Shown: piece after piece, positions 1-56,057 of the stretch | Numbering within the stretch: position 1 is the stretch's first letter | How the letters are laid out: every line of letters starts with the position of its first letter | Made by a program: the position numbers and the translations under genes | The notes under the pieces: model-generated | Seen by the model: only the letters and a program-made list of their open reading frames with translations | Databases searched by the model: none | Told to the model about the DNA's origin: nothing | IMG/VR virus record: IMGVR_UViG_3300020472_000001 | From: a virus | DNA length: 56,057 bases | Strand: one strand, 5' to 3'

Positions 1-77
1 CATTAGTTCAACTCCAAGGGAACTACATTATCAGTTTGTTGCTCTTGTTGAAGTTGTCTCATTTCAGCATGAACTCC
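1..77. repeat. 77-bp terminal direct repeat, identical to 55981..56057 (circular-closure overlap of the contig)
   Basis: cattagttcaactccaaggg...gcatgaactcc occurs verbatim at both ends. ORF 3..191 is re-entered at 55983..56057. Confidence 0.95.
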
Positions 78-5003: not shown

Positions 5004-5250
5004 TTTTACTCTTAGTAGTCAGGACAATTCGACTTGTAGGGGGAATGAAATCGTGTGCACGCGTTATCCTTTCTTTTATGACATCTGCATTACAATCATC
5101 ACAACAACGGCCGTCATTAATTGGTTGTGCATTATTACCATGCTCCCAAACAACTTCTCCGTCCTCATTCTTCAAGGGTTTTATGTAGCCATTGCAGATA
5201 CTACACCTTACTTTATCTAGCTTAGTTACGTTCATAATCCATATTCTCAA
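4993..5250 (-). CDS. Cys-rich (zinc-binding-like) small protein; start may be the ATG at 5235
   Basis: CSIC...CCDDC cysteine pattern. It overlaps the end of the methyltransferase gene. Confidence 0.7.
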   Translation of the reverse strand: MRIWIMNVTKLDKVRCSICNGYIKPLKNEDGEVVWEHGNNAQPINDGRCCDDCNADVIKERITRAHDFIPPTSRIVLTTKSKIDK

Positions 5251-6943
5251 AGATATGCTTGATTACTGCAACCGTCCACCCATTACCAAGCATCTTGTAT
5301 CTTTGTGTATTGCTAACATGATCCGTGTAATTATCTGGTACTGTCTGCAACCTTTCACATTCTAAAGGTGTAAGCTTTCTCCAAGTTAGATCTTCTGATT
5401 GAACACCTGTTGCATGAAAGGTGCCTTGTCTCTCAAAGTTTGCTCTTGATGATTTGTAATACTGTGACTTAATTGTTTGTGATTTATCTGGTAAGTTTTC
5501 AACTACAACACTATCTTTACCAACTGTTGTAATAGCGTTTGACTTATTATCTTTACGTAATTCAAGCATCTGTGTTGTCTTATTTGCTACAGAACTGCCG
5601 TCTCTGTCCATTCTTTTGCCTTTATTATCATAGGCTCTGCCACGAATTGCACCACCAGTGACTACCTTGGGCTCACGATTACCACCTTGACAAGTTGTTA
5701 CTGTAGGCGACTTACCTTCTGGACTATATACTCGTTTGAGTATGTCATGTCCGTTAATATCAACTGCAACACCTACTTGTTTTGGCTTAGTCTCTATCTT
5801 TGGTACTGTCCCTTTGCCTGCATGAGCTGTAATCGTAGGTGATTTGCCGTCTTCACTATAAACTCTTTTTAATATGTCATGTCCTGGAGTGTCAGTTTTA
5901 CCAACCATTTTAGGTTTTGTTTCTATGTATTGCTCTGTATTAGATGCAGTAATTGTTGGCGACTTACCCTCATCACTATAAACTCTTTGTTTAGTTTCAT
6001 AGACACCATCACGATAGACAAACTCCATAACTTCTTGATCAAACACTTCTGTCTTAATGCCTAATACTTCCTTAAGTTTGAGCCATATGTTATCGCCTGG
6101 TATTGCAAAACTGCTGTCTGTTCTAAACCAATGCTCTACCTTTGTGACTGGCATATTAGTTTCTTTTGCTATCTGTTTGTTTGTCTTACCAGACTCTTTC
6201 TTCATCTCTCTCAATAGATGTTGTAGCCCAGATATGTTGACTTCATGCTTCCTAACCTTTACTTCTTCTACATTCATCCCTACTTTTATTGGCTTATTGA
6301 CCAACTGCCTGCGGTATTTATCCTTGTAATGATGAGGTTTTGCACCTGTTTTAGAGTAATTAGCGTCAATACAATAGCTTTTGTCTCTATCGCTATCATA
6401 GTTATCTTCAAGTATATCCCTTAAAACTATGCCTTTATCTTCTGGTTCTTGTATTCCTGGTATGTTAGTCCAGTAATATCTTTGCCTTGATTGAGCACTT
6501 AGAAGCGAACTATTTATAAAAATGGGTTCTATGCCAAATGTTATCTCTGGATAACACTCTGATACTTGTTGAGATATAACCTGTAAGAACTCTTTTTTCA
6601 TCCTCACATTCTCTAATAGGAAGTATTTAGGCTTTATTTCTTTTAATAATCGTATAAATTCAAAGAACAATGCAGATCTAGGATCGTCAAAGGCCAACTG
6701 CTTACCTGCAAAACTAAAACCTTGGCACGGAGATCCCGCTAACATCAGATCTACATCTTGATAGTCTTTCGGATCTAAGTTGCAGATGTCTCCTACTTGC
6801 TCAATATCTGGATAGTTTGCTTGACTAACCTGGATAGCATACTTATCTATCTCACTTGCATAATACTTTTCTACTGGTATGCCAAGCTGATCAAGAGCAA
6901 TCCGACCACAAGACATACCATCAAATAAACTCAGTACCTTCAT
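5222..6943 (-). CDS. DNA (cytosine-5)-methyltransferase with HTH insert and triplicated TRD-like repeat
   Basis: C5-MTase motifs are present: I (LFDGMSCG), IV (GSPCQGFSFAG), VI (LLENV), VIII (QSRQRYYW) and X (LGNGWTV). A long variable region lies between VIII and IX. Confidence 0.9.
   Translation of the reverse strand: MKVLSLFDGMSCGRIALDQLGIPVEKYYASEIDKYAIQVSQANYPDIEQVGDICNLDPKDYQDVDLMLAGSPCQGFSFAGKQLAFDDPRSALFFEFIRLLKEIKPKYFLLENVRMKKEFLQVISQQVSECYPEITFGIEPIFINSSLLSAQSRQRYYWTNIPGIQEPEDKGIVLRDILEDNYDSDRDKSYCIDANYSKTGAKPHHYKDKYRRQLVNKPIKVGMNVEEVKVRKHEVNISGLQHLLREMKKESGKTNKQIAKETNMPVTKVEHWFRTDSSFAIPGDNIWLKLKEVLGIKTEVFDQEVMEFVYRDGVYETKQRVYSDEGKSPTITASNTEQYIETKPKMVGKTDTPGHDILKRVYSEDGKSPTITAHAGKGTVPKIETKPKQVGVAVDINGHDILKRVYSPEGKSPTVTTCQGGNREPKVVTGGAIRGRAYDNKGKRMDRDGSSVANKTTQMLELRKDNKSNAITTVGKDSVVVENLPDKSQTIKSQYYKSSRANFERQGTFHATGVQSEDLTWRKLTPLECERLQTVPDNYTDHVSNTQRYKMLGNGWTVAVIKHIFENMDYERN
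5669..6013 (-). repeat. three tandem in-frame repeats of about 40 aa inside the methyltransferase variable region
   Basis: The units are YETKQRVYSDEGKSPTITAS, GHDILKRVYSEDGKSPTITAH and GHDILKRVYSPEGKSPTVTTC, each followed by ETKPK or EPK spacers. Confidence 0.9.
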
Positions 6944-7143: not shown

Positions 7144-7191
7144 TTCTTCTCCCTTTTTAGTTACTTAATGTATTTAAGTTGTTACGCATAG

Positions 7192-7220
7192 TAGACATTA
7201 TAGATAAAATATTATAATAT
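7192..7220 (+). promoter_or_regulatory. promoter, TAGACA-17 nt-TAATAT, for the operon 7249..9637
   Basis: tagaca at 7192..7197 and taatat at 7215..7220. Confidence 0.55.
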
Positions 7221-7225
7221 ATCAA
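7197..7225 (-). promoter_or_regulatory. promoter, TTGATA-17 nt-TATAAT, for the operon 7143..3795
   Basis: rc of 7220..7225 is TTGATA and rc of 7197..7202 is TATAAT. It interdigitates with the divergent plus-strand promoter. Confidence 0.6.
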
Positions 7226-7248
7226 CTATACACATAGAGGAGTAAATT

Positions 7249-7440
7249 ATGAGTAAAAAAGAAGTAAATGTAACTGAGATTATTGATGAGATAATCAGCT
7301 ACACAAATCCATCTAAGGAAGACTTAGAAAAACAAATAGAACAAGATAAGATCAATTACCTTGTATGGCAATGTGGTGTTGCTATCAAAGAACTGCAATC
7401 AGCAGTTGACGAACTTAACAAATCTAAGGAGGCATCATGA
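7249..7440 (+). CDS. hypothetical protein (63 aa)
   Basis: ORF with GAGGAG RBS. Confidence 0.8.
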   Translation: MSKKEVNVTEIIDEIISYTNPSKEDLEKQIEQDKINYLVWQCGVAIKELQSAVDELNKSKEAS

Positions 7441-7703
7441 TAATTGATGGCAGTTTTGAATTAGATCATGTAAAAAAAGGATCAGAACATACAGGTATAG
7501 ATACCAACAACCCAACCTTTAAACCTTTTTGGGAAGTTCAATACCTTGGCAATGGTTTAAGTTATGGCGGTACAAAAAAAGAATGTATTGAATGGATAGC
7601 TGAATTTTATTATGAACACTATGATAAAAGAAGCAAGTCTGCATCTGAAACGGAAAAGAAAGCTTTAAACTGGGTTAATAAATGTATGAGGAGTGCATCA
7701 TGA
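7437..7703 (+). CDS. hypothetical protein (88 aa)
   Basis: ORF with ATGA overlaps at both ends. Confidence 0.8.
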   Translation: MIIDGSFELDHVKKGSEHTGIDTNNPTFKPFWEVQYLGNGLSYGGTKKECIEWIAEFYYEHYDKRSKSASETEKKALNWVNKCMRSAS

Positions 7704-22023: not shown

Positions 22024-22731
22024 TTATTCCTGTAAACATTTTAACCAAAATACTAATAAGTATCTATCTCCTGATTCTACTGCAAGTCCCCTGTGCATAT
22101 GAGTAAAACTCGGAAAAATTAGAGCGTGGCCTGTAGGTAAGGGCTCGACTGTACCACGTTTTAAAAACTCAGTTCCGCCACCTTTGTACTTTCCAGTGTT
22201 CAAAGGAACTACCATACTAATATCAGCACTTGCATCGTGATGCCAAGCACCTTGTTTTTTATCCCTTAAATTATAATTGGCTATTTGTATTCCACCACCA
22301 TTTACGTGTCTGTTCCAAATATTCAAAAATATAGGATTACCTATAGTATATATCGTATGCATTAAGGATTGGAAGATTTCAGGACAATTATCTTGAAAAG
22401 TTATTTCTGGTATTTGTCTTAATGTGTCCTCTTCATTGTTTGGTTGAAAGCCAAAATAAGCTTCTAAATTCTTCATTTCATCTAAAAGTATGTCGCAAAA
22501 CTTCTTAGAAAAGAATGGTACTGTATACACATCTTTTAATGGTTCTTGAATAATTTTATCTAATGAGGTGTCTTTTCTTTCTGTATCACCTTTTTGTTCG
22601 TAAAATTCAACAATAGGCTTAATAGAGTCTGATACTGCATAAAATGTGTCCTTTTGTATGTACCAGTCGGCAGGATGTTCTAAAAGAATGTTCTTTGTTT
22701 TATAGTTTAGATCTTCTGCTGTATTACTCAT
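22024..22731 (-). CDS. 2OG-Fe(II) oxygenase (prolyl-4-hydroxylase-like)
   Basis: H-x-D (WHHDAS), a distal His (THMHRG) and an RYLLVFW strand fit the double-stranded beta-helix dioxygenase pattern. Confidence 0.75.
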   Translation of the reverse strand: MSNTAEDLNYKTKNILLEHPADWYIQKDTFYAVSDSIKPIVEFYEQKGDTERKDTSLDKIIQEPLKDVYTVPFFSKKFCDILLDEMKNLEAYFGFQPNNEEDTLRQIPEITFQDNCPEIFQSLMHTIYTIGNPIFLNIWNRHVNGGGIQIANYNLRDKKQGAWHHDASADISMVVPLNTGKYKGGGTEFLKRGTVEPLPTGHALIFPSFTHMHRGLAVESGDRYLLVFWLKCLQE

Positions 22732-24921: not shown

Positions 24922-25365
24922 TTAAACCTCATGCCATTCTTTGCCTTCGAATAGCAAAGCTTCTGCTTCTCTGCGTCTTATAAGGCCTTGTAAAACTTTT
25001 CCACCTGCTTTGTTCCACCTTTTAATTTGTGATGGCACTTCTTCGAATTCTTTATTATTTAAAACTTTTAGCATAGTAGAAGCTTTGAGATTAGATGGGC
25101 CTAGATTAAAAACCCAACTTACTAAAGCATCAAATTGGTTTTGATCAAGATCAACAGTAACGCTATCTTTTACGTAACCTTCATATTCGTCCATTTCATG
25201 TAACAATAAACTATCAGCTTCTTCTTGTGTAATAGTGTCGCCTTCTTTAACACCTTTGGTTGAGCCATATCCTATAGTCAAAACGCCAGCAGCACACTTA
25301 TATGCTTCTAATTCACAACCTTCAAACTTTTTAATTAGCGATAAACCTTCTTGTGATATTTTCAT
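24922..25365 (-). CDS. endolysin, GH24 (T4/lambda-type) lysozyme
   Basis: LIKKFEGCELEAYKCAAGVLTIGYG...QNQFDALVSWVFNLG...GLIRRREAEALLF. I prefer the ATG at 25365 (AGGAG RBS, 1 nt after the holin stop) over 25422. Confidence 0.92.
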   Translation of the reverse strand: MKISQEGLSLIKKFEGCELEAYKCAAGVLTIGYGSTKGVKEGDTITQEEADSLLLHEMDEYEGYVKDSVTVDLDQNQFDALVSWVFNLGPSNLKASTMLKVLNNKEFEEVPSQIKRWNKAGGKVLQGLIRRREAEALLFEGKEWHEV

Positions 25366-25366
25366 A

Positions 25367-25846
25367 TTACTCCTTTTTGTCGCTGGTATTAGATGCTCCA
25401 AAATAGAACGAAATAATTGCACTTGCTAATCCTCCAAGATAACCAAGCACTAAATTAATAAGTGCTTCGCTGTTTTGTTCTGGTGGTTGAATTGTTACTA
25501 AAAATATGTAACCCATAAAGCCACCTATAGTAAATAAACCTATAATTCTAGCAGTCCAGTCTTTGCTAAACATACCTCTAGCGTGTTGTTTATCTGCTAC
25601 TTCTAGCTTAAATACATCAACATCAAGCTCTTTCATTTGTACTTCAAACTCTTGTTCAGCTTTTTTAATCTCCATCATTTGTTCTGGTGTAGCATTTTGT
25701 ATTGCTTGTTGTACTGATTTTTGATCATTAGATACACCTAATACTTCAGCTATTTTACCCATAGCCATACCGCCTAAGGGACCCCCCATAGCCGATCCTA
25801 AAGTAGGAGCTACCGCACCTATAATATTTTTTAGTAATCCCTTCAT
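25367..25846 (-). CDS. holin-like membrane protein (GTA_holin_3TM/DUF3154-like)
   Basis: Gly-rich N-terminus (LGSAMGGPLGGMAMGKIAEVLG), a central ADKQHAR motif and C-terminal TM segments. It lies immediately upstream of the lysozyme. Confidence 0.6.
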   Translation of the reverse strand: MKGLLKNIIGAVAPTLGSAMGGPLGGMAMGKIAEVLGVSNDQKSVQQAIQNATPEQMMEIKKAEQEFEVQMKELDVDVFKLEVADKQHARGMFSKDWTARIIGLFTIGGFMGYIFLVTIQPPEQNSEALINLVLGYLGGLASAIISFYFGASNTSDKKE

Positions 25847-26058
25847 ATTAAAAACCTCGTTAAAACTGCAATACCTATAGCACCAATAAAACCAAACACC
25901 CCAAAGGTTGCAGCTTTTATGGTTGAATTTATATAAGTTATTTCTTGTTTGATGTCAGAAAACTCATTAAAAGCAGTTTTCCAACGTTCATGCGATATTG
26001 TTTCTAGCTTTGTAAGTCTTTCTGCAACATCATTTACTGTCATTTTTTTATTAACCAT
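25843..26058 (-). CDS. small tail-anchored membrane protein (71 aa)
   Basis: Helical N-terminal part and a single C-terminal TM (ATFGVFGFIGAIGIAVLTRFLI). It sits between the cyclase and the holin. Confidence 0.65.
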   Translation of the reverse strand: MVNKKMTVNDVAERLTKLETISHERWKTAFNEFSDIKQEITYINSTIKAATFGVFGFIGAIGIAVLTRFLI

Positions 26059-27811
26059 CTTGTAATGTATATATTTTAATTGGCTTTTCTTTACCTTTTA
26101 CAAAAATACTATCAAGTTCTTTTAACAATACTTCGTTGCTAAAATTACTTGAACTGATAGTATCATAACCTATAACAATATCTTCACCAACTTCTTTGGT
26201 TGAGCTCTCTAGTCTAGCTGCAAGGTTTACCGCATCCCCTATAGCCGTATAATCAAACCTATCTTCAGACCCACAGTTACCTAACAATGCAAAACCTGTG
26301 TTGATTCCCACGCCTATTTCAACATTAATATCTGCTTTCTTAATGTTTTCTTGAATATCTCTAGCACATAATACTGCAGCAGTTTCATGTCCTGGTAGGT
26401 CAATAGGAGCATTAAATACGGCCATCATAGCGTCACCTATGTATTTATCTACCATACCTCCATACTCTTTTACTGCATCAGCTTGTATTGTTAGAGCTTT
26501 GTTCATAATCTTAGTAACTTCTTCTGGCTCTAGCTTTTCAGACATAGCAGTAAAACCTCTCACGTCAGTAAAAAGAAACGTGCAATATCTACGCTCACCA
26601 CCAAGCACTAGAGAACTAGGGTCATCCTGTAGTTTTTTGACTTGTCTTGGATCAAGATAGTGCTCAAACTGTTTCTTAATCTGTTGTCTTAGTTTGTATT
26701 GTTGTCTAAATCTTAAATAAAAAGCTATAGATCCTGTAATAAACTCTGATATAAGTGTCCAAGATACATCTACCAACATCCCTTTGTTTATAAGGTAATA
26801 ACCTAACCCCCCACTTATAATCATTAGAAGTGTTGCAACAGCAATACCCCAGGTAATACCTAGTATGTGTAAAGCAAACCATACAAAAGTAACAAAGGTT
26901 ATAAGTATTGTAAGCTCTGCTGCTAAAGACCAATCGGGTATATAAGGACTATTTTCTATAAGTATTGATTCTGCGAGTGCAGCTTGGATTCTATGTGGTT
27001 CTAGTAAGCCTACAGGTGTAGCTATTTGTGGCATCACACCATTAGCAGTTACACCTACAAATACAAACTTACCTGCTACATTCATTTCTTTTAAATCAGT
27101 TTGTGGTGTGTCAACCCAGCTTATCCACTTACGGCCAAGACTATCTGTTTTAACTGGCGGTATACCCCTTATTGATATTTCTGATATACCATTATCATTA
27201 GTTTTTATAATGTATGTTTTTACATTAAACAAGGCCTTATATATTTGTGTACCAAAACTAGGTATCCATTCGTCGTTAGGTGTTTTGACTAAAAGAGGTA
27301 TTCTTCTTACAAGTTGATCTACATCTGTGGGAGCAATAGCTAAACCAGTTAGCGTGTTGTTTGCTAATAGAGGAAGGTTTTGTTTTACTCCCAAACTAAG
27401 TATACCACCATTATTATTACCCATAACAACTGTACCAGGTGATGGAGGAAAGTTACCTTTACCATCTTCAAACATAGCTATAACAGAGGGTGCGTAACTT
27501 AGTGCTGTTGCAAACATTTCATCACCACCCATACGATCAGCCTGTGGGAAAGATATAACCCAACCCACACCTATAGCTCCTTTGTTTAGTAAGTCTATTT
27601 GTATTTCTGCAAGTCTTTGTCTTGGTAATGGATAACCACCTTCACGCTCTACATCTTCTTCAGTAATATTAAGTATGACAAAATTACCAGACTCTTGAGG
27701 TGTTTGTATAAAGTTATCAAATACTTTTAACTTAAGTATCTCTGTAGGCGTGCTTTGAAATAATAATGGTAAGGATAGTATTATAACTACAGGTAATAAT
27801 AGTCGTTTCAT
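26051..27811 (-). CDS. CHASE2 sensor domain / class III adenylate-guanylate cyclase
   Basis: Signal/TM segment, about 280 aa periplasmic domain, a TM cluster (aa about 295-370), then the catalytic core FLFTDVRGFT...VDKYIGDAMMAVF...IGVGINTG...FDYTAIGDAVNLAARLES. Confidence 0.88.
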   Translation of the reverse strand: MKRLLLPVVIILSLPLLFQSTPTEILKLKVFDNFIQTPQESGNFVILNITEEDVEREGGYPLPRQRLAEIQIDLLNKGAIGVGWVISFPQADRMGGDEMFATALSYAPSVIAMFEDGKGNFPPSPGTVVMGNNNGGILSLGVKQNLPLLANNTLTGLAIAPTDVDQLVRRIPLLVKTPNDEWIPSFGTQIYKALFNVKTYIIKTNDNGISEISIRGIPPVKTDSLGRKWISWVDTPQTDLKEMNVAGKFVFVGVTANGVMPQIATPVGLLEPHRIQAALAESILIENSPYIPDWSLAAELTILITFVTFVWFALHILGITWGIAVATLLMIISGGLGYYLINKGMLVDVSWTLISEFITGSIAFYLRFRQQYKLRQQIKKQFEHYLDPRQVKKLQDDPSSLVLGGERRYCTFLFTDVRGFTAMSEKLEPEEVTKIMNKALTIQADAVKEYGGMVDKYIGDAMMAVFNAPIDLPGHETAAVLCARDIQENIKKADINVEIGVGINTGFALLGNCGSEDRFDYTAIGDAVNLAARLESSTKEVGEDIVIGYDTISSSNFSNEVLLKELDSIFVKGKEKPIKIYTLQDG

Positions 27812-28929
27812 TAATCACTTTGAGTGATAGTTATAACGCTGTCACTCCCTCCATTTATTTTAATTATATTTGAAATACCATCTTGTATCAAAATAACTGT
27901 ATAGGCGTTACTACCATTAAGATCTACTCTAACGCTTTCGCTTACCTCTCTCCTAAGACTAACAACGTTACCTGTAATTAAAGCTGTTATTTGTGTTTCT
28001 GGATCTTTGCCTAATAAAGTACCAGATAATTGTGTGCTAGTGGCTTGTGCTAGTTGATCCTCTTCATCCGCTACTTCTAATGCATCTAGCACATTTAATA
28101 AATCTTCTAGGTAGTTTACATCCAGGTAATTTATATCAAGTTCTGTAAATTCCAAGTTATCTTCTTTTAGATAATCATCTGCTAAATAGTCTATATCGAG
28201 ATCATTAAAATCAAGTACGCTATCTGTTTGTGTGCTTGTAGCTTCTTCTTCTATTACTACTTCTTCTCTGGGTGGTGTAACAATAAGCATATTGTCTATA
28301 ACATCTAGTGTTAAATCTAATATTACGGGTTTGCTAGGAGCTGACTCAAATACGCTTACTGTAGTAGCTTCGTAGGGTTTATTAAGTAAAACTGTTCCCA
28401 TAGCAGTAACTACCTCTATTTCGCCACTAGAGAGCCCTAGAGAGTCTGGTAGAAGTATTATAAGACTACGGCCTAGTTCATCTACTGTAGCTGTAAAATC
28501 AGTACCACGAATAGCTATATTAGCCGTAGGTGTCTTGAGTATGATGTTTTGTTTATCTATACGGTTAAGATTGCCTGTAATAAACCTAGCTGTACCAAGT
28601 CCAAAGGTAAGTGCCATCTTTGCTTTGCTTGGATCTGAATCGTAGATATATTCATCAATAAAAAGCTGCGAGTTTTCTGTAAGCTTTACGACTGAATCAT
28701 CAAGAAAAGTAATAGCCATACGGCCATCTTTTGTAATGGCTTCATCATTACTTTGTATAGCGAACTTTAAATTAGCATCATACGGCTTATCTCTAAATAT
28801 CTGAGCTGTACCGTTAAGTTCGGAAATATCTCCTATATCAACAGCTTGTGCTTGTACCTTGGTCGTTTTGAATGACACAAACAGTAGAAGCAGAAGTGCC
28901 AGAAATGGATATGATTTTAAGCCAGTCAT
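27811..28929 (-). CDS. secreted FecR-domain protein with acidic C-terminal extension
   Basis: Signal peptide (FLALLLLLFVSFKTTKVQAQA). FecR pattern: ITKDGRMAITFLDDSVVKLTENSQLFI...GTARFITG...LKTPTANIAIRGTDF. Confidence 0.8.
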   Translation of the reverse strand: MTGLKSYPFLALLLLLFVSFKTTKVQAQAVDIGDISELNGTAQIFRDKPYDANLKFAIQSNDEAITKDGRMAITFLDDSVVKLTENSQLFIDEYIYDSDPSKAKMALTFGLGTARFITGNLNRIDKQNIILKTPTANIAIRGTDFTATVDELGRSLIILLPDSLGLSSGEIEVVTAMGTVLLNKPYEATTVSVFESAPSKPVILDLTLDVIDNMLIVTPPREEVVIEEEATSTQTDSVLDFNDLDIDYLADDYLKEDNLEFTELDINYLDVNYLEDLLNVLDALEVADEEDQLAQATSTQLSGTLLGKDPETQITALITGNVVSLRREVSESVRVDLNGSNAYTVILIQDGISNIIKINGGSDSVITITQSD

Positions 28930-29566
28930 TATCTTGTGTACTCAGTTGTGAGATATTAAAAGTTCTTGAACCACCAGTATGATCTAACCAAAAATATCCG
29001 CCTGCTGAGGCATTAACACCTGTTCCTGTATAAGTTACTGTATTATCAGAACCATCTATATCCATATAGTTAGTTGCTCCATCAATATTAATATTTGATG
29101 TAACTGTGTTATTTGAACCATTAATAATCCAATCTAAGTCAAGTGATGCAGCTAGTGCCGTTGTACCTTGATTTAAGGTAAATGTATTACCGCTACCTGT
29201 TACATCAACATTCTGGTTTGAGCCGTCAGCACTATAAGTATCTGTAGGATCTACCTGAATAGTAAATGAATTAGTACCGCCATCAAACTCATAAAAACCT
29301 GTAAATGTGTCAGCGAATATATCACCAAGAAACTTATTAGTTGCACCAATCATGTTGATGTCTAAAGTCATGGTGTTTCCATCTAAATCAAAAGCATTAA
29401 CGCTTCCAGCCGTTGAATTCAAACCACCAATAATATTAGATATACCTAGTTGTTCTAGGTCTATATTTGCACCCGTACCTGACTGGTCCACATAAATTTC
29501 GTTATCAGCCGCGTAACTTGTCCATACACTCAGCATCACAAGTAGGCTTATTAATTTCTTCATCAT
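28838..29566 (-). CDS. secreted curlin-repeat-like beta-solenoid protein (putative CsgA-type substrate)
   Basis: Signal peptide (MMKKLISLLVMLSVWTSYAA). Degenerate repeats IYVDQSGTGANIDLEQ, VDVTGSGNTFTLNQ and IDGSDNTVTYTGTG resemble the curlin Q-x-G-x-G-N-x-A-x3-Q units. Confidence 0.6.
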   Translation of the reverse strand: MMKKLISLLVMLSVWTSYAADNEIYVDQSGTGANIDLEQLGISNIIGGLNSTAGSVNAFDLDGNTMTLDINMIGATNKFLGDIFADTFTGFYEFDGGTNSFTIQVDPTDTYSADGSNQNVDVTGSGNTFTLNQGTTALAASLDLDWIINGSNNTVTSNINIDGATNYMDIDGSDNTVTYTGTGVNASAGGYFWLDHTGGSRTFNISQLSTQDNDWLKIISISGTSASTVCVIQNDQGTSTSC

Positions 29567-30404
29567 TTAATTTTACTCCTTGGTTTTCTTTTTGTAAAAC
29601 CCAATATTTTCTGTTATAACCTATTTGCACCAGTTCAAGGACAGCACCTTCTATAGCTTTCATCAAAGCTATGGTAGAAGATTCATTTCTAGCGTTACCT
29701 AATTCTATTTCCACTAACTCAGTATTTGCCTCAATAAACCTAAACACATCTTCAGATTTACCATAGCTAAATATAGTCTTTTGACTTAATACTTCTAGTA
29801 ATACTTCGCCTGTAGCTACAGACACCATTCTAAGTGAAACTGTTATATTGTCTTCTCTATACTGTACGCTGTTTCCAATACCAAGATACCTGGCTCCTAC
29901 GCCACCAGACTCTAAATTAGCTTCGTAAGATATAACGGCACCTTCTATTAAGATACCTGCAAATAATAATGGTCTAAGAGCTTTATTTTTGTCTTCTTCT
30001 GAGGCAGTTTGTTCTCTTGCAGAACGTATGAGCTGTCGTTCTTTAGTAAGATTGTCTAATCCTACCCGTTCAACCACCCTAAAGAAATTACCGTCTCCTG
30101 CGTGTTTTAAAGCTCGTATAAGTAATGCGTTTGGTTGTTGTGTTATAGCTGTACTAAATAGTGCAAATTCACTATTGCTTTTTCTTTGTCCTGTTTGGTC
30201 TGTAAAAGCAGCAGGGTATACCGCTACTACAGGACTAACTTCTGGTATTGGTACGTTTTTAAGCTCTTTAGACTGTAAATCCTTAATTGATACAACATCA
30301 CTTCTATTAAATCTTTGCTCGTAAGTGTCTTCGTATTGGTCAAATATAGAGCAACTAGAAAGTAAAAGTACCAATAGGAATTGAAATCGAGGTAATTGTT
30401 CCAT
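29505..30404 (-). CDS. csgG: CsgG-family outer-membrane lipoprotein channel
   Basis: Lipobox LLSSC. Full-length resemblance to E. coli CsgG, e.g. LIEGAVISYEANLESGGVGARYLGIG, ITVSLRMVSVATGEVL, VFRFI and ALMKAIEGAV. Confidence 0.88.
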   Translation of the reverse strand: MEQLPRFQFLLVLLLSSCSIFDQYEDTYEQRFNRSDVVSIKDLQSKELKNVPIPEVSPVVAVYPAAFTDQTGQRKSNSEFALFSTAITQQPNALLIRALKHAGDGNFFRVVERVGLDNLTKERQLIRSAREQTASEEDKNKALRPLLFAGILIEGAVISYEANLESGGVGARYLGIGNSVQYREDNITVSLRMVSVATGEVLLEVLSQKTIFSYGKSEDVFRFIEANTELVEIELGNARNESSTIALMKAIEGAVLELVQIGYNRKYWVLQKENQGVKLNDEEINKPTCDAECMDKLRG

Positions 30405-30855
30405 CTTGTTCCGTTATTTTTAGGGTTAGTGTTACGCCATCGCTAGTATACTCTATAGTGTTACCTTCTAATGTAATGGTTCCAGAACTTTGTGGCGTTT
30501 CACCAAACAAGTTATTAACTAGCTGCCTTGATAACTCTGCATAAACTCTTGATTCTAAGTTACGCATAAACCTTGCAAGTGTAGAGTTCTCTTTCTCTCT
30601 TTCTATCTCATCTTGTATGGCTTTGATTTCTTCTTTGATAGTTAGCTTACGACTAAACTCTTGGTTCTCTATAGTTAGATAGTGTGAAGAGGTACCAACG
30701 CCATTAAAACTAGGTGATTTAAACTTGTGAACTATTTGATCCGACCAAAGGTTTTGTGCAAATATACCAACAAATAATAGTGCACCTATAACAGCAACTA
30801 CTTTAATTATCATATCTTTTTCTTGTTCTGAAGATTCAATCTTTCCTTTGGTCAT
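30355..30855 (-). CDS. csgF: CsgF-like protein (start possibly the ATG at 30813)
   Basis: TM/signal segment followed by HKFKSPSFNGVG (compare CsgF FQFRNPNFGG). C-terminal TLEGNTIEYTSDGVTLTLKITEQDGTITSISIP resembles CsgF [28 protein letters not shown]. Confidence 0.65.
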   Translation of the reverse strand: MTKGKIESSEQEKDMIIKVVAVIGALLFVGIFAQNLWSDQIVHKFKSPSFNGVGTSSHYLTIENQEFSRKLTIKEEIKAIQDEIEREKENSTLARFMRNLESRVYAELSRQLVNNLFGETPQSSGTITLEGNTIEYTSDGVTLTLKITEQDGTITSISIPIGTFTF

Positions 30856-31186
30856 CTCTATCCGCCTTTGCTAACCTGTCGGTATGCATAAGTTGTGGTA
30901 CACCAAGTATAGTCTTGAGAAGTGTGTCTTGTCTAATTATCTCGTTATCTACAGATCGCACTCTATCAATAAGAGCAACTAAAATACCGTGTTGTGAGTC
31001 TAGTTTTTGACCTAATCGCTGTTCTATTTCAGATATTTGTGCAGAAACTTTCTCATCCAGGACATCAACCTTAGTTTCCATACCGTCAATAATTTTATTA
31101 ATAAGCTTCCAAATAAATAACCCTAAACCTATAGCTGCTGCTATTGGAAAACCTACTTCATTAATTAATTGAACTACTGAGTCCAT
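30836..31186 (-). CDS. small N-terminally anchored membrane protein (116 aa), BhlA/YvrJ-like N-terminus
   Basis: The TM segment QLINEVGFPIAAAIGLGLFIWKL is followed by a coiled coil. The family assignment is tentative. Confidence 0.45.
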   Translation of the reverse strand: MDSVVQLINEVGFPIAAAIGLGLFIWKLINKIIDGMETKVDVLDEKVSAQISEIEQRLGQKLDSQHGILVALIDRVRSVDNEIIRQDTLLKTILGVPQLMHTDRLAKADRDDQRKD

Positions 31187-31191
31187 TTGAT

Positions 31192-31572
31192 TTAGTAGTC
31201 ACCCCAAACCTTGCTTTTGGTGCCTCCGTGGTACTCAACTGCGTGTCCTTCATCTATAAGCATTTGGCAAATATCTTTACCATCTTCTGTGTAAGGTATG
31301 CCGAGAATACGTCCATATTTACCTTTACCAAGTGATTTAACTTTAAAACTACCGCAACATAACTCACCAAGCCTTGCTTTAGCAGCTAAACCTAGTTTTT
31401 TTTCAGCAAGATCACGTGTCCTGGATTCTGGAGTATCAATTCCTGCTAATCTAACTCTTTGTTTATGTAGTTTTACATCAAAACCTAGATCTAAAATACA
31501 ATCAAAGGTATCTCCGTCTACAATACGGTCAAGTGTTGCGTTATAGACAAAAGCATCTGGTGATTTAGCCAT
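31192..31572 (-). CDS. staphylococcal-nuclease-like (SNase/thermonuclease) endonuclease
   Basis: DGDTFDC...VRLAGIDTPE...KGKYGRILG...LIDEGHAV fits the SNase fold signature. Confidence 0.8.
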   Translation of the reverse strand: MAKSPDAFVYNATLDRIVDGDTFDCILDLGFDVKLHKQRVRLAGIDTPESRTRDLAEKKLGLAAKARLGELCCGSFKVKSLGKGKYGRILGIPYTEDGKDICQMLIDEGHAVEYHGGTKSKVWGDY

Positions 31573-31987: not shown

Positions 31988-32530
31988 CTATAAGAAATTA
32001 AACCACCCTGTAATAATATACTTTTCTTGATTTTCAGATATTTGTCCTCTATGAGCGTGTGTCCAACCCGCAGGAAAAATAATTGTTGAGCCTTTTTTAG
32101 CTTTCGTAACACAATCTTGATATAAGAATTCTGTTCCTCCGTTTTTAACATTGTTTAAATATGTGCTAAAAACTAAGTGTCTGTTTATAACACTAGGATT
32201 ACCATCGTTTTCTATATGCCATTTATAAAAACCCCATCCTTTATCATAATATTGTATTTTAGGACGGTGATTAATACCATAAAACTCTACATCATCTGCA
32301 AATTTATATTTTGAAGTGTATTGTTTTAAACATTTTAATAATTCATTTTTATATAAAAGGTTTGTTAAATCTTCTGGAGCTATCATTATCTCTAATGATT
32401 TTTTTACTTTCTCATCTAACTTACCATTACCAACTCTACCATCTTCTGCGTTAGCTTTATTAACGTTCCAATAATTAATTAGTTCATCAACAGCTTCTTC
32501 ACTTATTTGATATTCGCCTATAAAGTTCAT
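31988..32530 (-). CDS. 2OG-Fe(II) oxygenase-like protein
   Basis: The C-terminal GGTEF...GSTIIFPAGWTHAHRG...KYIITGW pattern is typical of the putative 2OG-Fe(II) oxygenase family common in marine phages. Confidence 0.65.
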   Translation of the reverse strand: MNFIGEYQISEEAVDELINYWNVNKANAEDGRVGNGKLDEKVKKSLEIMIAPEDLTNLLYKNELLKCLKQYTSKYKFADDVEFYGINHRPKIQYYDKGWGFYKWHIENDGNPSVINRHLVFSTYLNNVKNGGTEFLYQDCVTKAKKGSTIIFPAGWTHAHRGQISENQEKYIITGWFNFL

Positions 32531-33123
32531 TGTTTAAAATAAGCAGGTAAACCAATCATAGGTCTACCATCAAATTTATTTTGTTTAGCATCTTTACTAC
32601 TTGCATCGTTGTAGTGTAAAAATACCTGCCCACAATCTTTACCTTCAAAAGGTTTTCTCCAATGTTCTACATCACAACCACGATACATTAACATATCCCC
32701 TTGGTTTAAATTTATTTCAATATCAGGTTCTAAATATATTGACCAATTATCACCACCTAAATTCAAAGTAGTAGATATTTCACAAGAGTATCTATCTTTA
32801 TGTCTTTTTAACTCATCACCATTTTTATAAATTCTTGCATAAGAATAAGTTTCAATTAGCTTTACACCTGATTCTTTTTCCATTATTGGCTTAACTTTTT
32901 GTAATAAAGTTTCCATAACTATATCAGCGTAATGTGAATAAGTTTCAGGTATTTGATTGTCATTCCAAACTCCAAAGTATTCAGTAAACTGTGATATATA
33001 TTTTTCATCAAACAAATATCTTGCTACATCTTTTTTATTTAAAAAATATTGATAACAAAAATCTGCTAGTTCTTTTGATATAGCACCTTTAATTACTTGG
33101 TATTTATTTTTTTTAAAACTCAT
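32527..33123 (-). CDS. 2OG-Fe(II) oxygenase
   Basis: H-x-D (RHKDRY), a distal His (DVEHWR) and GDMLMYRG fit the DSBH dioxygenase pattern. Confidence 0.7.
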   Translation of the reverse strand: MSFKKNKYQVIKGAISKELADFCYQYFLNKKDVARYLFDEKYISQFTEYFGVWNDNQIPETYSHYADIVMETLLQKVKPIMEKESGVKLIETYSYARIYKNGDELKRHKDRYSCEISTTLNLGGDNWSIYLEPDIEINLNQGDMLMYRGCDVEHWRKPFEGKDCGQVFLHYNDASSKDAKQNKFDGRPMIGLPAYFKQ

Positions 33124-33740
33124 TTAAATGGGTATCCTATATTCCAACACACTAAGGAGTGTCGTGTTCCTTTTGTTACTGGTGTAACTCTATGCCAAAC
33201 AAAGGAAGGAAAAACAATTACACTTCCCTTTTGCCTTATTTCTTCACATATTCTTGGTTGTGAACCTTCGTCTGTATTTCTAAAATCAAATTCTAGATCT
33301 CCACCTTCATATTCTTCGGGATCAGTAAGTGATACAGTCATACTGAGTTTTCTTAACTTACCATGTCTATTTGTATTTTCAGGTTCGTCATAAGGTACTT
33401 CAAAAGAATCACAATGCCAATCGTAAAACTGACCTTTTTTATATTCAGTAAATTGGCAAGGCTCTGACCAGTCCCATTCAAAATTCCATTTTGCGTTTGC
33501 ATTAGCTTGGTGTATGTAAGGTTGTATTTCGTTATATATCCATCTATCAGACATCCATACCACATCTGACTTTCTTTTCTTTTGAATGTTTTTAAGTTCT
33601 ACTTCTGTAAGTTCGTTTTTATTAGTGCCTCCTGTAGTAGCTATTTGTTTATCTTGTTCTTTACCATAACGTACTATATCGTCACATATTTTTTCTGGTA
33701 TAGCAGATTTAAAATACCAATAATACCATTTAAGATTCAT
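33120..33740 (-). CDS. 2OG-Fe(II) oxygenase (P4H-like)
   Basis: WHCDSF (H-x-D), RKLSMTVSLTDPEEYEGGDLEF, GSVIVFPSFVWHRVTPVTKGTRHSLVCW. Confidence 0.8.
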   Translation of the reverse strand: MNLKWYYWYFKSAIPEKICDDIVRYGKEQDKQIATTGGTNKNELTEVELKNIQKKRKSDVVWMSDRWIYNEIQPYIHQANANAKWNFEWDWSEPCQFTEYKKGQFYDWHCDSFEVPYDEPENTNRHGKLRKLSMTVSLTDPEEYEGGDLEFDFRNTDEGSQPRICEEIRQKGSVIVFPSFVWHRVTPVTKGTRHSLVCWNIGYPFK

Positions 33741-55731: not shown

Positions 55732-55983
55732 TTAACTTACATCAGCACAATCAAAACAGTAATGATATGTTTCATTACCTTTTGCTTTCCATGTATCAGA
55801 TTTCATCATACATCTATATTCGTCTGTTCCATCTTTTTCTTTATACCATGTCTCTGTTTGCTTACAATTCTTCTTACAACAATAAGCATTTCTTATGTAA
55901 TCATCGTAATCAAAACCAACCCCACACTCATCACAAGTGTAGGGCTGTTTGTTTTGTAGATGTGATAGCACTACATATGCCAT
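55732..55983 (-). CDS. Cys-rich (zinc-finger-like) small protein (83 aa)
   Basis: CDEC...CCKKNC...C...CFDC pattern. Its start overlaps the stop of ORF 3..191 across the circular junction. Confidence 0.75.
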   Translation of the reverse strand: MAYVVLSHLQNKQPYTCDECGVGFDYDDYIRNAYCCKKNCKQTETWYKEKDGTDEYRCMMKSDTWKAKGNETYHYCFDCADVS

Positions 55984-56057
55984 TAGTTCAACTCCAAGGG
56001 AACTACATTATCAGTTTGTTGCTCTTGTTGAAGTTGTCTCATTTCAGCATGAACTCC
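55981..56057. repeat. second copy of the 77-bp end overlap (identical to 1..77)
   Basis: Verbatim identity to 1..77. Confidence 0.95.

Follow-up and report, generated by a model that had tools for sequence, protein, structure and literature searches.

A predicted viral curli-type (type VIII) secretion module with a FecR–CHASE2 cyclase pair in an HTVC023P-type pelagiphage genome

The window, the whole stretch of DNA analysed here, is a closed circular genome of ~56 kb that, judged by its sequence, is that of an HTVC023P-type pelagiphage, i.e., a podovirus infecting SAR11 (Pelagibacter); its TerL is nearest to those of HTVC023P, HTVC027P, and 023Pt_psg01 (58–60% identity). Six co-oriented, overlapping genes on the minus strand, making up ~9% of the genome, encode a small protein (p116), homologues of CsgF and CsgG, a curlin-repeat family protein, an exported FecR-domain protein, and a CHASE2-sensor adenylate cyclase, and are followed on the same strand, outside the module, by p71, p159, and a T4-type endolysin (24922..26058). 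The initial annotation had claimed five of the six as one block, and all five ORFs were found where it had placed them. Neighboring genes of this block overlap by 1, 92, 62, and 50 nt, and the 8-nt and 20-nt overlaps that it had given as tying the block to the 71-aa and 116-aa genes proved correct. All six module genes are under purifying selection (pN/pS).

Close relatives are encoded on at least 275 IMG/VR contigs, gene order was identical in all 56 IMG/VR loci that could be judged, and an identical CsgG was present in independent Tara, ENA, and Logan assemblies; the 80 loci compared represent one lineage, with CsgG at least 76% identical. An assembly chimera, or bacterial contamination in a phage contig, was rejected on this recurrence and retains next to no probability: the arrangement is found across dozens of independent metagenomes and assemblers, nucleotide composition is uniform across the cassette and its flanks, the overlaps interlock the two, and the nearest “bacterial” GTDB matches, contigs labelled as Maricaulis and Pelagibacter MAGs, themselves bear phage lysozyme and virion genes. 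No point in its favor was found. The gene overlaps, recurring order, and independent assemblies agree with the earlier view that the block is no chimera but an integral part of the phage transcription unit beside the lysis genes.

The CsgG homologue (29505..30404; Pfam CsgG, 6.3e-46) is the predicted lipoprotein secretion channel of the outer membrane. Residues 44–274 align with the solved E. coli CsgG structure 3x2r (E = 4.7e-46), taking in the GGVGARY(L/F)GIG and VFRFI stretches, and the lipobox LLSSC is read directly in the sequence, bearing out the claim of likeness to CsgG along the whole length. The constriction loop is altered (SNSEFALF versus PYPASNF in E. coli), and the NCBIfam CsgG score is 179 bits against an equivalog cut-off of 505. 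The CsgF homologue (30355..30855; Pfam CsgF, 4.8e-15) would form the extracellular cap, or plug, of this channel. Its Pfam match spans profile positions 4–132 of 132, its family profile matches E. coli CsgF (6l7a_J, 1.2e-11), residues 15–33 form a signal-peptide-like segment, and the N-terminal N-P-x-F-G/S-G motif is aligned (“fknPsFsGn” with FRNPNFGGN), consistent with the CsgF-type plug noticed at first. CsgF, the known role of which is surface nucleation and anchoring, is kept in all 66 IMG/VR loci.

No CsgE homologue was recognised in the cassette or elsewhere in the phage proteome, as the initial annotation had stated. This would suit an earlier suggestion (PMC7029224, PMC9599517) that CsgG, ungated in the absence of CsgE, serves as an open import channel that admits larger nutrients or cofactors to the periplasm and aids phage replication. 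We consider this role very unlikely, as it leaves unexplained both the conservation of CsgF, a protein that narrows the channel, and a strongly constrained secreted repeat protein, and as the closest bacterial T8SS loci, those of Alphaproteobacteria, are also without CsgE yet have curlins.

The presumed T8SS substrate is a 242-aa protein (28838..29566) with an N-terminal signal peptide, MMKKLISLLVMLSVWTSYA, and ~9 repeat units. On its own it scored 10.6 bits (E = 0.59) against Curlin_rpt, below the 20.7-bit threshold, but a profile of 33 homologues, 15 of which match Curlin_rpt, matched the curlin-repeat protein 8c50 (2.1e-11) and E. coli CsgA (8enq, 3.7e-4). The curlin-like repeats reported at first thus hold at the level of the family profile and not for the single sequence, and it is at that level that the protein is assigned to the curlin-repeat family. 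An AF2 model from a diverse alignment (pLDDT 81.7) predicted with confidence a stack of short beta-strands, 18 in all; a Foldseek search did not retrieve CsgA. The protein is present in 56 of 56 IMG/VR loci and has the lowest pN/pS of the cassette (0.12), indicating the strongest constraint. With only one repeat protein, this variant has no separate CsgB-like nucleator. A C-terminal Cys pair (C230, C242), which E. coli CsgA does not have, is invariant and could cap a solenoid.

These features might instead describe a beta-solenoid that does not polymerise. The T8SS would then export it as a monomer, kept at the surface or released, that blocks or masks receptors (superinfection exclusion) or captures a ligand, with no amyloid fibres formed. 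The lone repeat protein and missing nucleator, a Cys pair able to close one end, and the lack of clumping among cells infected by Methylophilales phage Melnitz would all fit, as would the PA14 sugar-binding domain that Pelagibacter phage HTVC008M has on its second repeat protein and that suggests binding of a ligand. Since the repeat family is homologous to fibre-forming curlins and the nucleating and anchoring CsgF is kept in all 66 loci, we judge this unlikely.

The FecR-domain protein (27811..28929) has an N-terminal signal sequence, an FecR domain at residues 66–151 (Pfam FecR, 9.4e-10), and an acidic, D/E/L-rich middle region, in agreement with its first description as a secreted protein; no anti-sigma N-domain was found in it, and its pN/pS is 0.14. 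The adjoining gene (26051..27811) encodes a protein with TM segments at residues 1–19 and from ~301, a CHASE2 domain at 11–307 (Pfam, 1.8e-26), and a Guanylate_cyc domain at 410–584 (Pfam, 9.4e-19). The class III catalytic stretches (FTDVRGFT, VDKYIGDAMM, and DYTAIGDAVNLAARLE) are retained when compared to CyaB 3r5g and 6fht, with the catalytic Asp, Asp, Lys, Thr, Asn, and Arg all aligned, consistent with the apparently active sensor-fused cyclase that had been proposed. The HMM searches thereby placed the CHASE2 cyclase and the FecR, CsgG, and CsgF proteins in the families first named for them. At least one related phage contig (L083) lacks the cyclase, which is therefore dispensable to the T8SS part.

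An FecR-family ORF adjoins a CHASE2 cyclase, with Csg genes absent, in five of five alphaproteobacterial loci, and both genes are absent from four of four alphaproteobacterial T8SS loci, a small sample selected by homology in which interaction is read from gene adjacency. By these gene neighborhoods, the FecR protein and CHASE2 cyclase of Alphaproteobacteria are a separate two-gene sensor unit, unlinked to T8SS, and the phage cassette therefore appears to join two bacterial modules. This suggests that FecR is a sensor partner of the cyclase rather than an iron regulator. In Burkholderia, an operon that regulates biofilm pairs a CHASE2 kinase with a LysM-FecR protein (PMC5192318), and a construct of S. 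meliloti CyaD1 without CHASE2 makes cAMP constitutively (PMC5498481).

The remaining module gene, p116 (30836..31186), had been taken for a flank of the block. A p116-like ORF in fact sits upstream of CsgF in 57 of the 66 IMG/VR loci that could be judged, HTVC008M and Melnitz each have two copies, and pN/pS for p116 is 0.22. The protein has one N-terminal TM helix (hydrophobic segment, residues 7–25), only weak coiled-coil matches in the PDB, and a weak match to a PHROG holin (7e-5). This position is labelled “HK” in PMC9599517; p116 matched neither HisKA nor HATPase_c and has no invariant His, leaving a histidine kinase label unsupported. From these features, p116 is the sixth conserved gene and the first of the module, a membrane-anchored coiled-coil protein and not a histidine kinase.

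Downstream of the module lie p71, with a C-terminal TM helix, p159, with two C-terminal TM helices and holin-like by architecture only, and a phage lysozyme (24922..25422; Phage_lysozyme 1.9e-48, PHROG endolysin 1.4e-63). The cassette continues into these genes through 8-nt and 4-nt overlaps, and of 41 loci that could be judged, 37 have lysozyme 0.4–1.5 kb downstream of the cyclase. Together with the altered CsgG constriction loop and the holin match and spanin-like topology of p116, this adjacency could point to a lysis-timing device, in which CsgG, either alone or together with CsgF, has become a gated pore of the outer membrane or a secretin- or pinholin-like element. Its opening would help to set off lysis or bring it to completion, on a timing signal supplied by the CHASE2 cyclase. 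Holins are triggered by depolarisation of the inner membrane, which a ~1 nm outer-membrane pore would not cause. A pore alone also leaves the best-conserved CsgF and the secreted repeat protein unexplained, and the phage already encodes lysozyme plus a holin-like protein. The modules of HTVC008M and Melnitz do not lie beside lysozyme; adjacency is specific to the podophage lineage of the window and, because the 80 loci are all of that one lineage, may reflect one ancestral insertion. The device, an idea proposed by Buchholz et al. (PMC9004378), is in our assessment improbable.

The block had initially been thought not to be a described phage system. However, the records of HTVC008M (KC465899) and Melnitz (MZ577097) list CsgF, CsgG, a curlin-associated protein, and an adenylate/guanylyl cyclase in matching order, that of Melnitz with the FecR-domain protein as well. 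In print, a curli cluster is carried by pelagimyophages (PMC7029224, 2020), CsgG and CsgF were modelled and a role in lysis timing proposed (PMC9004378, 2022), and HTVC023P-type podophages have the order “HK”-CsgF-CsgG-CsgA/B-FecR-(CsgA/B)-AC (PMC9599517, 2022), a module found at all 65 GOV2.0 stations and transcribed, according to metatranscriptome data (PMC9599517). The cassette has thus been described, but its printed roles are proposals only, and those of the initial annotation (fibres or aggregation, superinfection exclusion, a pore, lysis timing) are among the proposals already published.

The module is almost certainly this viral type VIII (curli) secretion module of SAR11-type phages. 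As to its action, host Sec and Lol machinery would place the CsgG–CsgF channel in the outer membrane during infection, giving a host without a T8SS of its own such a channel from the phage. The curlin-repeat protein would be threaded outward through it and fold on the cell surface as a beta-solenoid, most likely polymerising on CsgF, and the altered surface of the infected cell could bring adhesion or aggregation, or receptor masking. The FecR protein and CHASE2 cyclase, neither iron regulators nor T8SS parts, would be an envelope-sensor unit borrowed from Alphaproteobacteria, with FecR acting from the periplasm on the CHASE2 domain and so setting cytoplasmic cAMP synthesis; because no recognisable cNMP receptor is encoded by the phage, reading the signal would fall to a host protein. 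All three parts for secretion and fibres are present, each with a signal peptide or lipobox, which, with the CsgF plug motif, the curlin-fibre match, the constraint on the substrate, and the alphaproteobacterial CsgF-CsgG-curlin layout, favors a working T8SS. Buchholz et al. (PMC9004378) observed no clumps among cells infected with Melnitz, which counts against the fibre mechanism, as do the sub-threshold Curlin_rpt score, the Foldseek search that missed CsgA, the one repeat protein with its Cys pair, and the changed constriction loop. We infer the fibre-secretion and sensor steps, and regard the explanation as a whole, the known module with both mechanisms, as reasonably probable.

Compared with csgBAC-csgDEFG of E. 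coli and Salmonella, phage CsgG aligns end to end, CsgF at profile level, and the substrate family matches CsgA, but the phage has no CsgB, CsgC, CsgD, or CsgE, its ~9 repeats are irregular (versus 5), and its constriction loop differs. Alphaproteobacterial curli loci share with the phage the order csgF-csgG and then curlin genes, sometimes with csgH (as in Aureimonas), and the lack of CsgC, CsgD, and CsgE; the phage repeat-family profile picks up their curlins (E 4e-20 to 7e-4), and their CsgG is 41–48% identical. Unlike the phage, they carry several curlin paralogues, and FecR, CHASE2 cyclase, and p116 are absent within 7 kb. The bacterial FecR–CHASE2 pairs (Burkholderia BiofilmReg; S. meliloti CyaD1/D2/K; Paracoccus, Ruegeria, Shinella, Ensifer, Rhizobium) likewise set an exported FecR-domain protein beside a CHASE2 membrane sensor, and in Alphaproteobacteria this sensor has a class III cyclase as its output, as in the phage (25–30% identity over 92–96% of length). 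They differ in having no T8SS linkage, varied outputs (histidine kinase in Burkholderia), and FecR proteins that are often larger or with LysM or TPR partners.

Among phages, HTVC008M and Melnitz have the order of two p116-like genes, CsgF, CsgG, curlin-repeat protein, FecR protein, and cyclase, with identities to the window of 43–49% for CsgG, 38–41% for CsgF, 34–36% for FecR, and 30–35% for the cyclase. They are T4-like myophages, whereas the window is a podophage, their module does not adjoin lysozyme, and a second, longer repeat protein lies between FecR and cyclase (with the PA14 domain in HTVC008M). The additions made here are the sixth gene, the joining of bacterial modules, purifying selection, and lineage-specific lysis adjacency. 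The HTVC023P-type module (PMC9599517) comes from the same phage group as the window, has the same order of small upstream protein, CsgF, CsgG, curlin-repeat protein, FecR, and adenylate cyclase, and takes a similar share of the genome (7.8 ± 1.6%). Nothing essential differs; the variant in the window has one repeat protein, which leaves FecR directly next to the cyclase, the two genes overlapping by 1 nt. With such cassettes described in SAR11 phages since 2013–2022, this one is therefore a further example of a known system.

The window carries an exact 77-nt terminal direct repeat (1..77 = 55981..56057), and its presence at both ends indicates a closed circular assembly and a complete genome of ~ 55,980 bp. 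A primase, a portal, a large terminase, and tail and virion genes are also encoded. Its large terminase shares 58-60% identity with those of the Pelagibacter phages HTVC027P and HTVC023P and of 'phage 023Pt_psg01', which places the window among the HTVC023P-type pelagiphages, podoviruses that infect SAR11. Megablast of half of the genome against deposited phages returned no match, and kinship was detectable only at the protein level. Further genes encode a 573-aa DNA methyltransferase, several 2OG-Fe(II) oxygenases, a sulfotransferase, a Cpn10 (GroES-like) protein and a Cro-like protein (e.g., 5222..6943, 22024..22731, 31988..33740), auxiliary genes of the kind reported in the HTVC023P-type phage group.

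Five open-reading frames of the cassette lie on the minus strand exactly where the initial annotation had placed them: a CHASE2 cyclase (26051..27811, 586 aa), a FecR-domain protein (27811..28929, 372 aa), a repeat protein (28838..29566, 242 aa), CsgG (29505..30404, 299 aa) and CsgF (30355..30855, 166 aa). They overlap one another by 1, 92, 62 and 50 nt, and the 8-nt and 20-nt overlaps described for the adjoining 71-aa and 116-aa genes were also found. A T4-type lysozyme (24922..25422, Pfam 1.9e-48) lies in one flank and an SNase-like nuclease (31192..31572, Pfam) in the other. Between 22.5 and 34 kb, a promoter scan found fewer promoter-like sites than shuffled sequence (24 vs 48) and a terminator scan found no informative terminator, so statements on transcription units are limited to orientation and overlaps. 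A chimeric assembly, in which the cassette would have been joined to the phage artificially, is excluded: GC content is uniform throughout the region, as had been claimed, and an identical CsgG protein with the same neighbours is present on a 56,035-bp Tara Oceans scaffold and in independent ENA and Logan assemblies. In related loci, the nuclease gene is found upstream of the 116-aa gene or between the cyclase and lysozyme genes (11 loci), with some contigs carrying it in both places (examples among the related loci are L015:13492-13869 and L053:491-868 and 7154-7531); this small gene at the module edges is mobile or duplicated.

The CsgG open-reading frame matches Pfam CsgG at 6.3e-46 (156.8 bits, cut-off 20.8), and residues 44-274 align with the solved E. 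coli CsgG 3x2r (E = 4.7e-46), covering the stretches on which the initial assignment to this family had relied. A putative N-terminal lipobox, L-S-S-C in MEQLPRFQFLLVLLLSSC, is read straight from the translation. The phage constriction loop, SNSEFALF, is one residue longer than E. coli PYPASNF and retains only the Phe. The E. coli C-loop constriction residues, Tyr51, Asn55 and Phe56, are not reproduced as a set when the phage protein is aligned to the E. coli structure. The PYPASNF-type loop is a mark of E. coli pore geometry and not of the CsgG family, and its alteration suggests that pore properties may differ from those in E. coli. The NCBIfam equivalog test for E. coli-type CsgG also failed (179.1 bits vs a cut-off of 505), a score far enough under the cut-off to indicate a divergent CsgG subfamily and not an E. 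coli equivalog.

CsgF matches nearly the entire Pfam CsgF profile at 4.8e-15 (56.3 bits, cut-off 25.8). A single-sequence phmmer search of the phage protein against the PDB found nothing and a profile was required; one built from phage and alphaproteobacterial CsgFs aligned over its whole length with E. coli CsgF 6l7a_J (1.2e-11), with 'fknPsFsGn' opposite FRNPNFGGN. The N-terminal N-P-x-F-G-G plug motif, which inserts into the CsgG barrel, is therefore aligned, bearing out both the identity and the motif first proposed.

Curlin-like repeats in the 242-aa protein were the weakest of the earlier claims. Pfam gave no significant family for this protein, and its own Curlin_rpt score (10.6 bits, E = 0.59, residues 21-41) fell under the 20.7-bit cut-off, but the claim stood at the level of the family. 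An exhaustive search placed the protein in a narrow family of 216 representative clusters among 1.84 billion, and recurring Q-x-G-x-x-N units are seen in an alignment of 33 full-length members that takes in the syntenic proteins of HTVC008M and Melnitz phages. Curlin_rpt is matched by 15 of these 33, the syntenic Melnitz protein scoring 26.0 bits, and the family profile (A2) matched the solved curlin-repeat fibre protein 8c50 at 2.1e-11 and E. coli CsgA 8enq at 3.7e-4. On this profile evidence, the protein was accepted as a member of the curlin-repeat family.

An AF2 model built from 31 close homologues, none below 81% identity, was unusable (pLDDT 52.5) and a diverse alignment was needed, which gave a confident model of 18 regular short beta-strands (pLDDT 81.7, pTM 0.78). 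Foldseek of this model against the PDB returned a best E of 0.2, the weak matches being generic beta-helices with CsgA absent, and autocorrelation found no clear fixed repeat period in the protein, its repeats being irregular. A CsgA-type fold is thus a modelled candidate, not confirmed. The profile match to a solved fibre protein speaks against the rival reading of a secreted solenoid that does not polymerise, and we regard this non-polymerising form as improbable; fibre formation itself falls slightly short of an even chance. Two cysteines at the C-terminus, C230 and C242, 12 residues apart (CVIQNDQGTSTSC), are kept in all 31 close homologues; a C-terminal cysteine pair is also present in a subset of distant ones and missing from the myophage versions. 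The pair could form a disulfide cap at the solenoid end. E. coli CsgA is not known to have such a C-terminal pair. The C-terminus of the FecR protein ('...VITITQSD') was also considered as a curlin-like, fibre-docking repeat and rejected, as hhalign of the FecR family against the curlin family gave 0.8% probability (E = 0.066) with a different region aligned. HTVC008M encodes a second, longer curlin-repeat protein (L001:9471-10796 on its genome, AGE60352) with a PA14 domain (2.7e-6). PA14 is a sugar-binding or adhesin module, a hint that the myophage fibres may be adhesive.

The 116-aa gene directly before CsgF (p116, 30836..31186) had been treated as flank. It belongs to the module, since a p116-like open-reading frame precedes CsgF in 57 of the 66 judgeable loci among the best 80 IMG/VR contigs, and two such genes lie ahead of CsgF in HTVC008M and in Melnitz (L001:5733-6295; L002:5837-6475). 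Members of this family span 93-116 aa and combine a single N-terminal transmembrane helix with a coiled coil, and the family profile matched the PDB weakly, in coiled coils only. Histidine kinases are defined by a HisKA/DHp domain, in which a conserved His accepts the phosphate, together with HATPase_c. Neither HisKA nor HATPase_c was matched in p116 at E up to 10 or across the family at 0.01, and the family alignment contains no invariant His. The 'HK' label given to this position (PMC9599517) was therefore rejected; p116 is a module member and a single-pass membrane protein. Its topology resembles that of an i-spanin or type II holin, with a weak PHROG holin match (7e-5).

The cyclase has the architecture of a CHASE2 receptor, with Pfam CHASE2 at residues 11-307 (1.8e-26), Guanylate_cyc at 410-584 (9.4e-19), and transmembrane segments at 1-19 and from ~ 301. 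These hydrophobic segments predict a periplasmic CHASE2 domain and a cytoplasmic cyclase domain. In the established literature, class III cyclases use two metal-binding Asp, a substrate-specifying Lys and Thr/Asp, and a transition-state Asn and Arg. When aligned to CyaB of P. aeruginosa (3r5g) and to the 6fht cyclase, the phage protein has FTDVRGFT, VDKYIGDAMM and DYTAIGDAVNLAARLE at these positions, and the catalytic set is intact, with both metal Asp, the substrate Lys and Thr, and the transition-state Asn and Arg retained, consistent with the apparently active CHASE2-class III cyclase that had been described.

In its 372-aa form, the adjoining protein has a signal sequence followed by a FecR domain only (Pfam FecR 9.4e-10, residues 66-151), in agreement with its description as secreted. 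Public gene calls on two compared loci (L095, L097) start it 17 codons later, giving 355 aa without the signal peptide; the 372-aa form with the signal peptide would imply the 92-nt overlap with the repeat-protein gene. Regulators of the FecI-FecR-FecA type combine a cytoplasmic anti-sigma N-domain, a transmembrane helix and a periplasmic FecR domain, and partner with an ECF sigma factor and a TonB-dependent transducer. The phage protein lacks the anti-sigma N-domain, and no sigma factor or TonB-dependent receptor is present among the 52 other phage proteins. An iron regulator of this type was accordingly rejected, and the protein should not carry that name.

A GTDB scan by CsgG alignment for bacterial donors returned only three loci, two of them phage contigs binned into MAGs and the third a distant Thiotrichaceae CsgG with no partner genes, and bacterial context was therefore taken from annotated alphaproteobacterial replicons in a plasmid/chromid collection. 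Contigs deposited as bacterial or archaeal MAG sequence that carry the phage module are L083 (NZMJ01000004.1, 'Maricaulis sp.'), L084 (NZIO01000054.1, 'Ca. Pelagibacter sp.') and P0031 ('Euryarchaeota archaeon TMED97', 56.6 kb), the first two with the phage lysozyme and L083 with the phage virion gene; such binning could mislead inferences of host or origin. In a small, homology-selected sample, the five closest CHASE2-cyclase loci (Paracoccus, Ruegeria, Ensifer, Shinella and R. tropici) all had an adjoining FecR-family gene and none had Csg genes. None of the four closest type VIII secretion system (T8SS) loci (Sphingomonas, Azospirillum, Indioceanicola and Aureimonas) had FecR or a cyclase within 7 kb; in these, CsgG is followed by one to four proteins matching the phage repeat profile, and CsgF was detected in three. 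In Burkholderia, a CHASE2 kinase and a LysM-FecR protein form a biofilm-regulating operon (PMC5192318), and in S. meliloti, a CyaD1 construct without CHASE2 makes cAMP constitutively (PMC5498481). Given this pairing, these precedents and the lack of iron-regulator features, the two phage genes can be read as a borrowed envelope sensor in which the FecR protein is probably the sensor partner of the cyclase.

None of the 52 other phage proteins was recognisable as cNMP-binding (E up to 0.001), so that the host would have to supply the reader of any cAMP signal. On Paracoccus aminophilus pAMI5 (L088:215-8115), TPR, FecR and CHASE2-cyclase genes adjoin a 'cyclic nucleotide-binding and patatin-like phospholipase' gene, a possible example of a bacterial cAMP reader. 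The related phage contig L083 (129-6667) runs from p116, CsgF, CsgG, the repeat protein and FecR directly to a holin-like gene and lysozyme, with no cyclase, indicating that the cyclase is dispensable for the T8SS part in some relatives.

Close CsgG relatives occur on at least 275 IMG/VR contigs, and counts were taken from judgeable loci among the best 80 (76-96% identity). Within these 80, CsgF precedes CsgG in 66 of 66 loci, and CsgG is followed by the repeat protein, FecR and cyclase in 56 of 56. Relative to the window, uncorrected pN/pS is 0.12-0.22 over the six cassette genes, lowest (0.12) in the repeat protein, and similar to that of the virion protein (0.15), indicating that all six are maintained as working proteins. 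An import pore, raised together with 'sibling capture' when the curli cluster was traced across pelagimyophages (PMC7029224, 2020), does not account for the strong conservation of the repeat protein, and we consider import very unlikely. Lysozyme lies 0.4-1.5 kb past the cyclase in 37 of 41 judgeable loci of the same 80, an arrangement that would suit a pore timing lysis. This role was proposed in a 2022 study in which CsgG and CsgF were modelled and infected cells were not clumped (PMC9004378). The 80 loci are one lineage, so this adjacency counts as roughly one observation, and it is missing in the myophages HTVC008M and Melnitz; a lysis-timing pore is unlikely.

The identities of the genes, their export signals, the catalytic residues, and the conservation and synteny established here fit a secretion mechanism that we favour on balance, in which a T8SS-exported repeat protein would stand on the surface while the FecR-CHASE2 cyclase reports by cAMP. 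CsgG would be brought to the outer membrane by host Sec and Lol and capped by CsgF; the repeat protein would be threaded out, fold on the surface of a cell otherwise without such a structure, and probably polymerise there, and the sensor pair would turn envelope or secretion state into a cAMP signal. A more specific version, to which we give little credence, is a virus-specific fusion of an alphaproteobacterial CsgF-CsgG-curlin T8SS with a FecR/CHASE2 cyclase sensor, modules unlinked in the closest bacterial relatives, where the state of the envelope or the export of curlin would be sensed and turned into cAMP, which would either reprogram the SAR11 host or set the timing of the holin-like and endolysin genes immediately downstream, and p116 would be an inner-membrane component.

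A phage-delivered secretion system that alters the infected-cell surface could change how cells aggregate, how often phage and host meet and how much carbon is exported, a question recognised and published since 2020-2022, and the window adds one more genome but no new kind of system. The increments are annotation corrections (the 'HK' protein lacks kinase features, and 'FecR' probably serves as sensor partner to the cyclase and not as an iron regulator). The placing of p116 in the module and the reading of FecR-cyclase as a borrowed pair go slightly beyond the published papers. Seeing the cassette as a union, made in phages, of two bacterial modules narrows the choice of worthwhile experiments.

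The initial observation was confirmed and its interpretation supported in part. Its claim of a phage system not yet described was wrong, as the module is present in deposited phages and papers, and the roles it suggested are the published ones. The cassette is an already known pelagiphage T8SS module, treated in three papers (PMC7029224, PMC9004378, PMC9599517), an identity we regard as nearly certain; no later functional study of the module was found in the literature. By tblastn, the window CsgG is 49% identical to that of HTVC008M (KC465899) and 43% to those of four Melnitz phages (e.g., MZ577097). HTVC008M has CsgF, CsgG, a curlin-associated protein and an adenylate/guanylyl cyclase annotated in the same order, with a hypothetical protein in the FecR position, and in Melnitz, where the order is also that of the window, the FecR-domain protein is annotated too. 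The module of HTVC023P-type podophages was described in 2022 as 'HK', CsgF, CsgG, CsgA/B, FecR, an optional second CsgA/B and AC, was present at all 65 GOV2.0 stations with transcripts found, and was inferred to have come from Alphaproteobacteria and to have passed from myophages to podophages (PMC9599517). The window has the identical gene order in an HTVC023P-type genome, differing in the absence of the optional second repeat protein.
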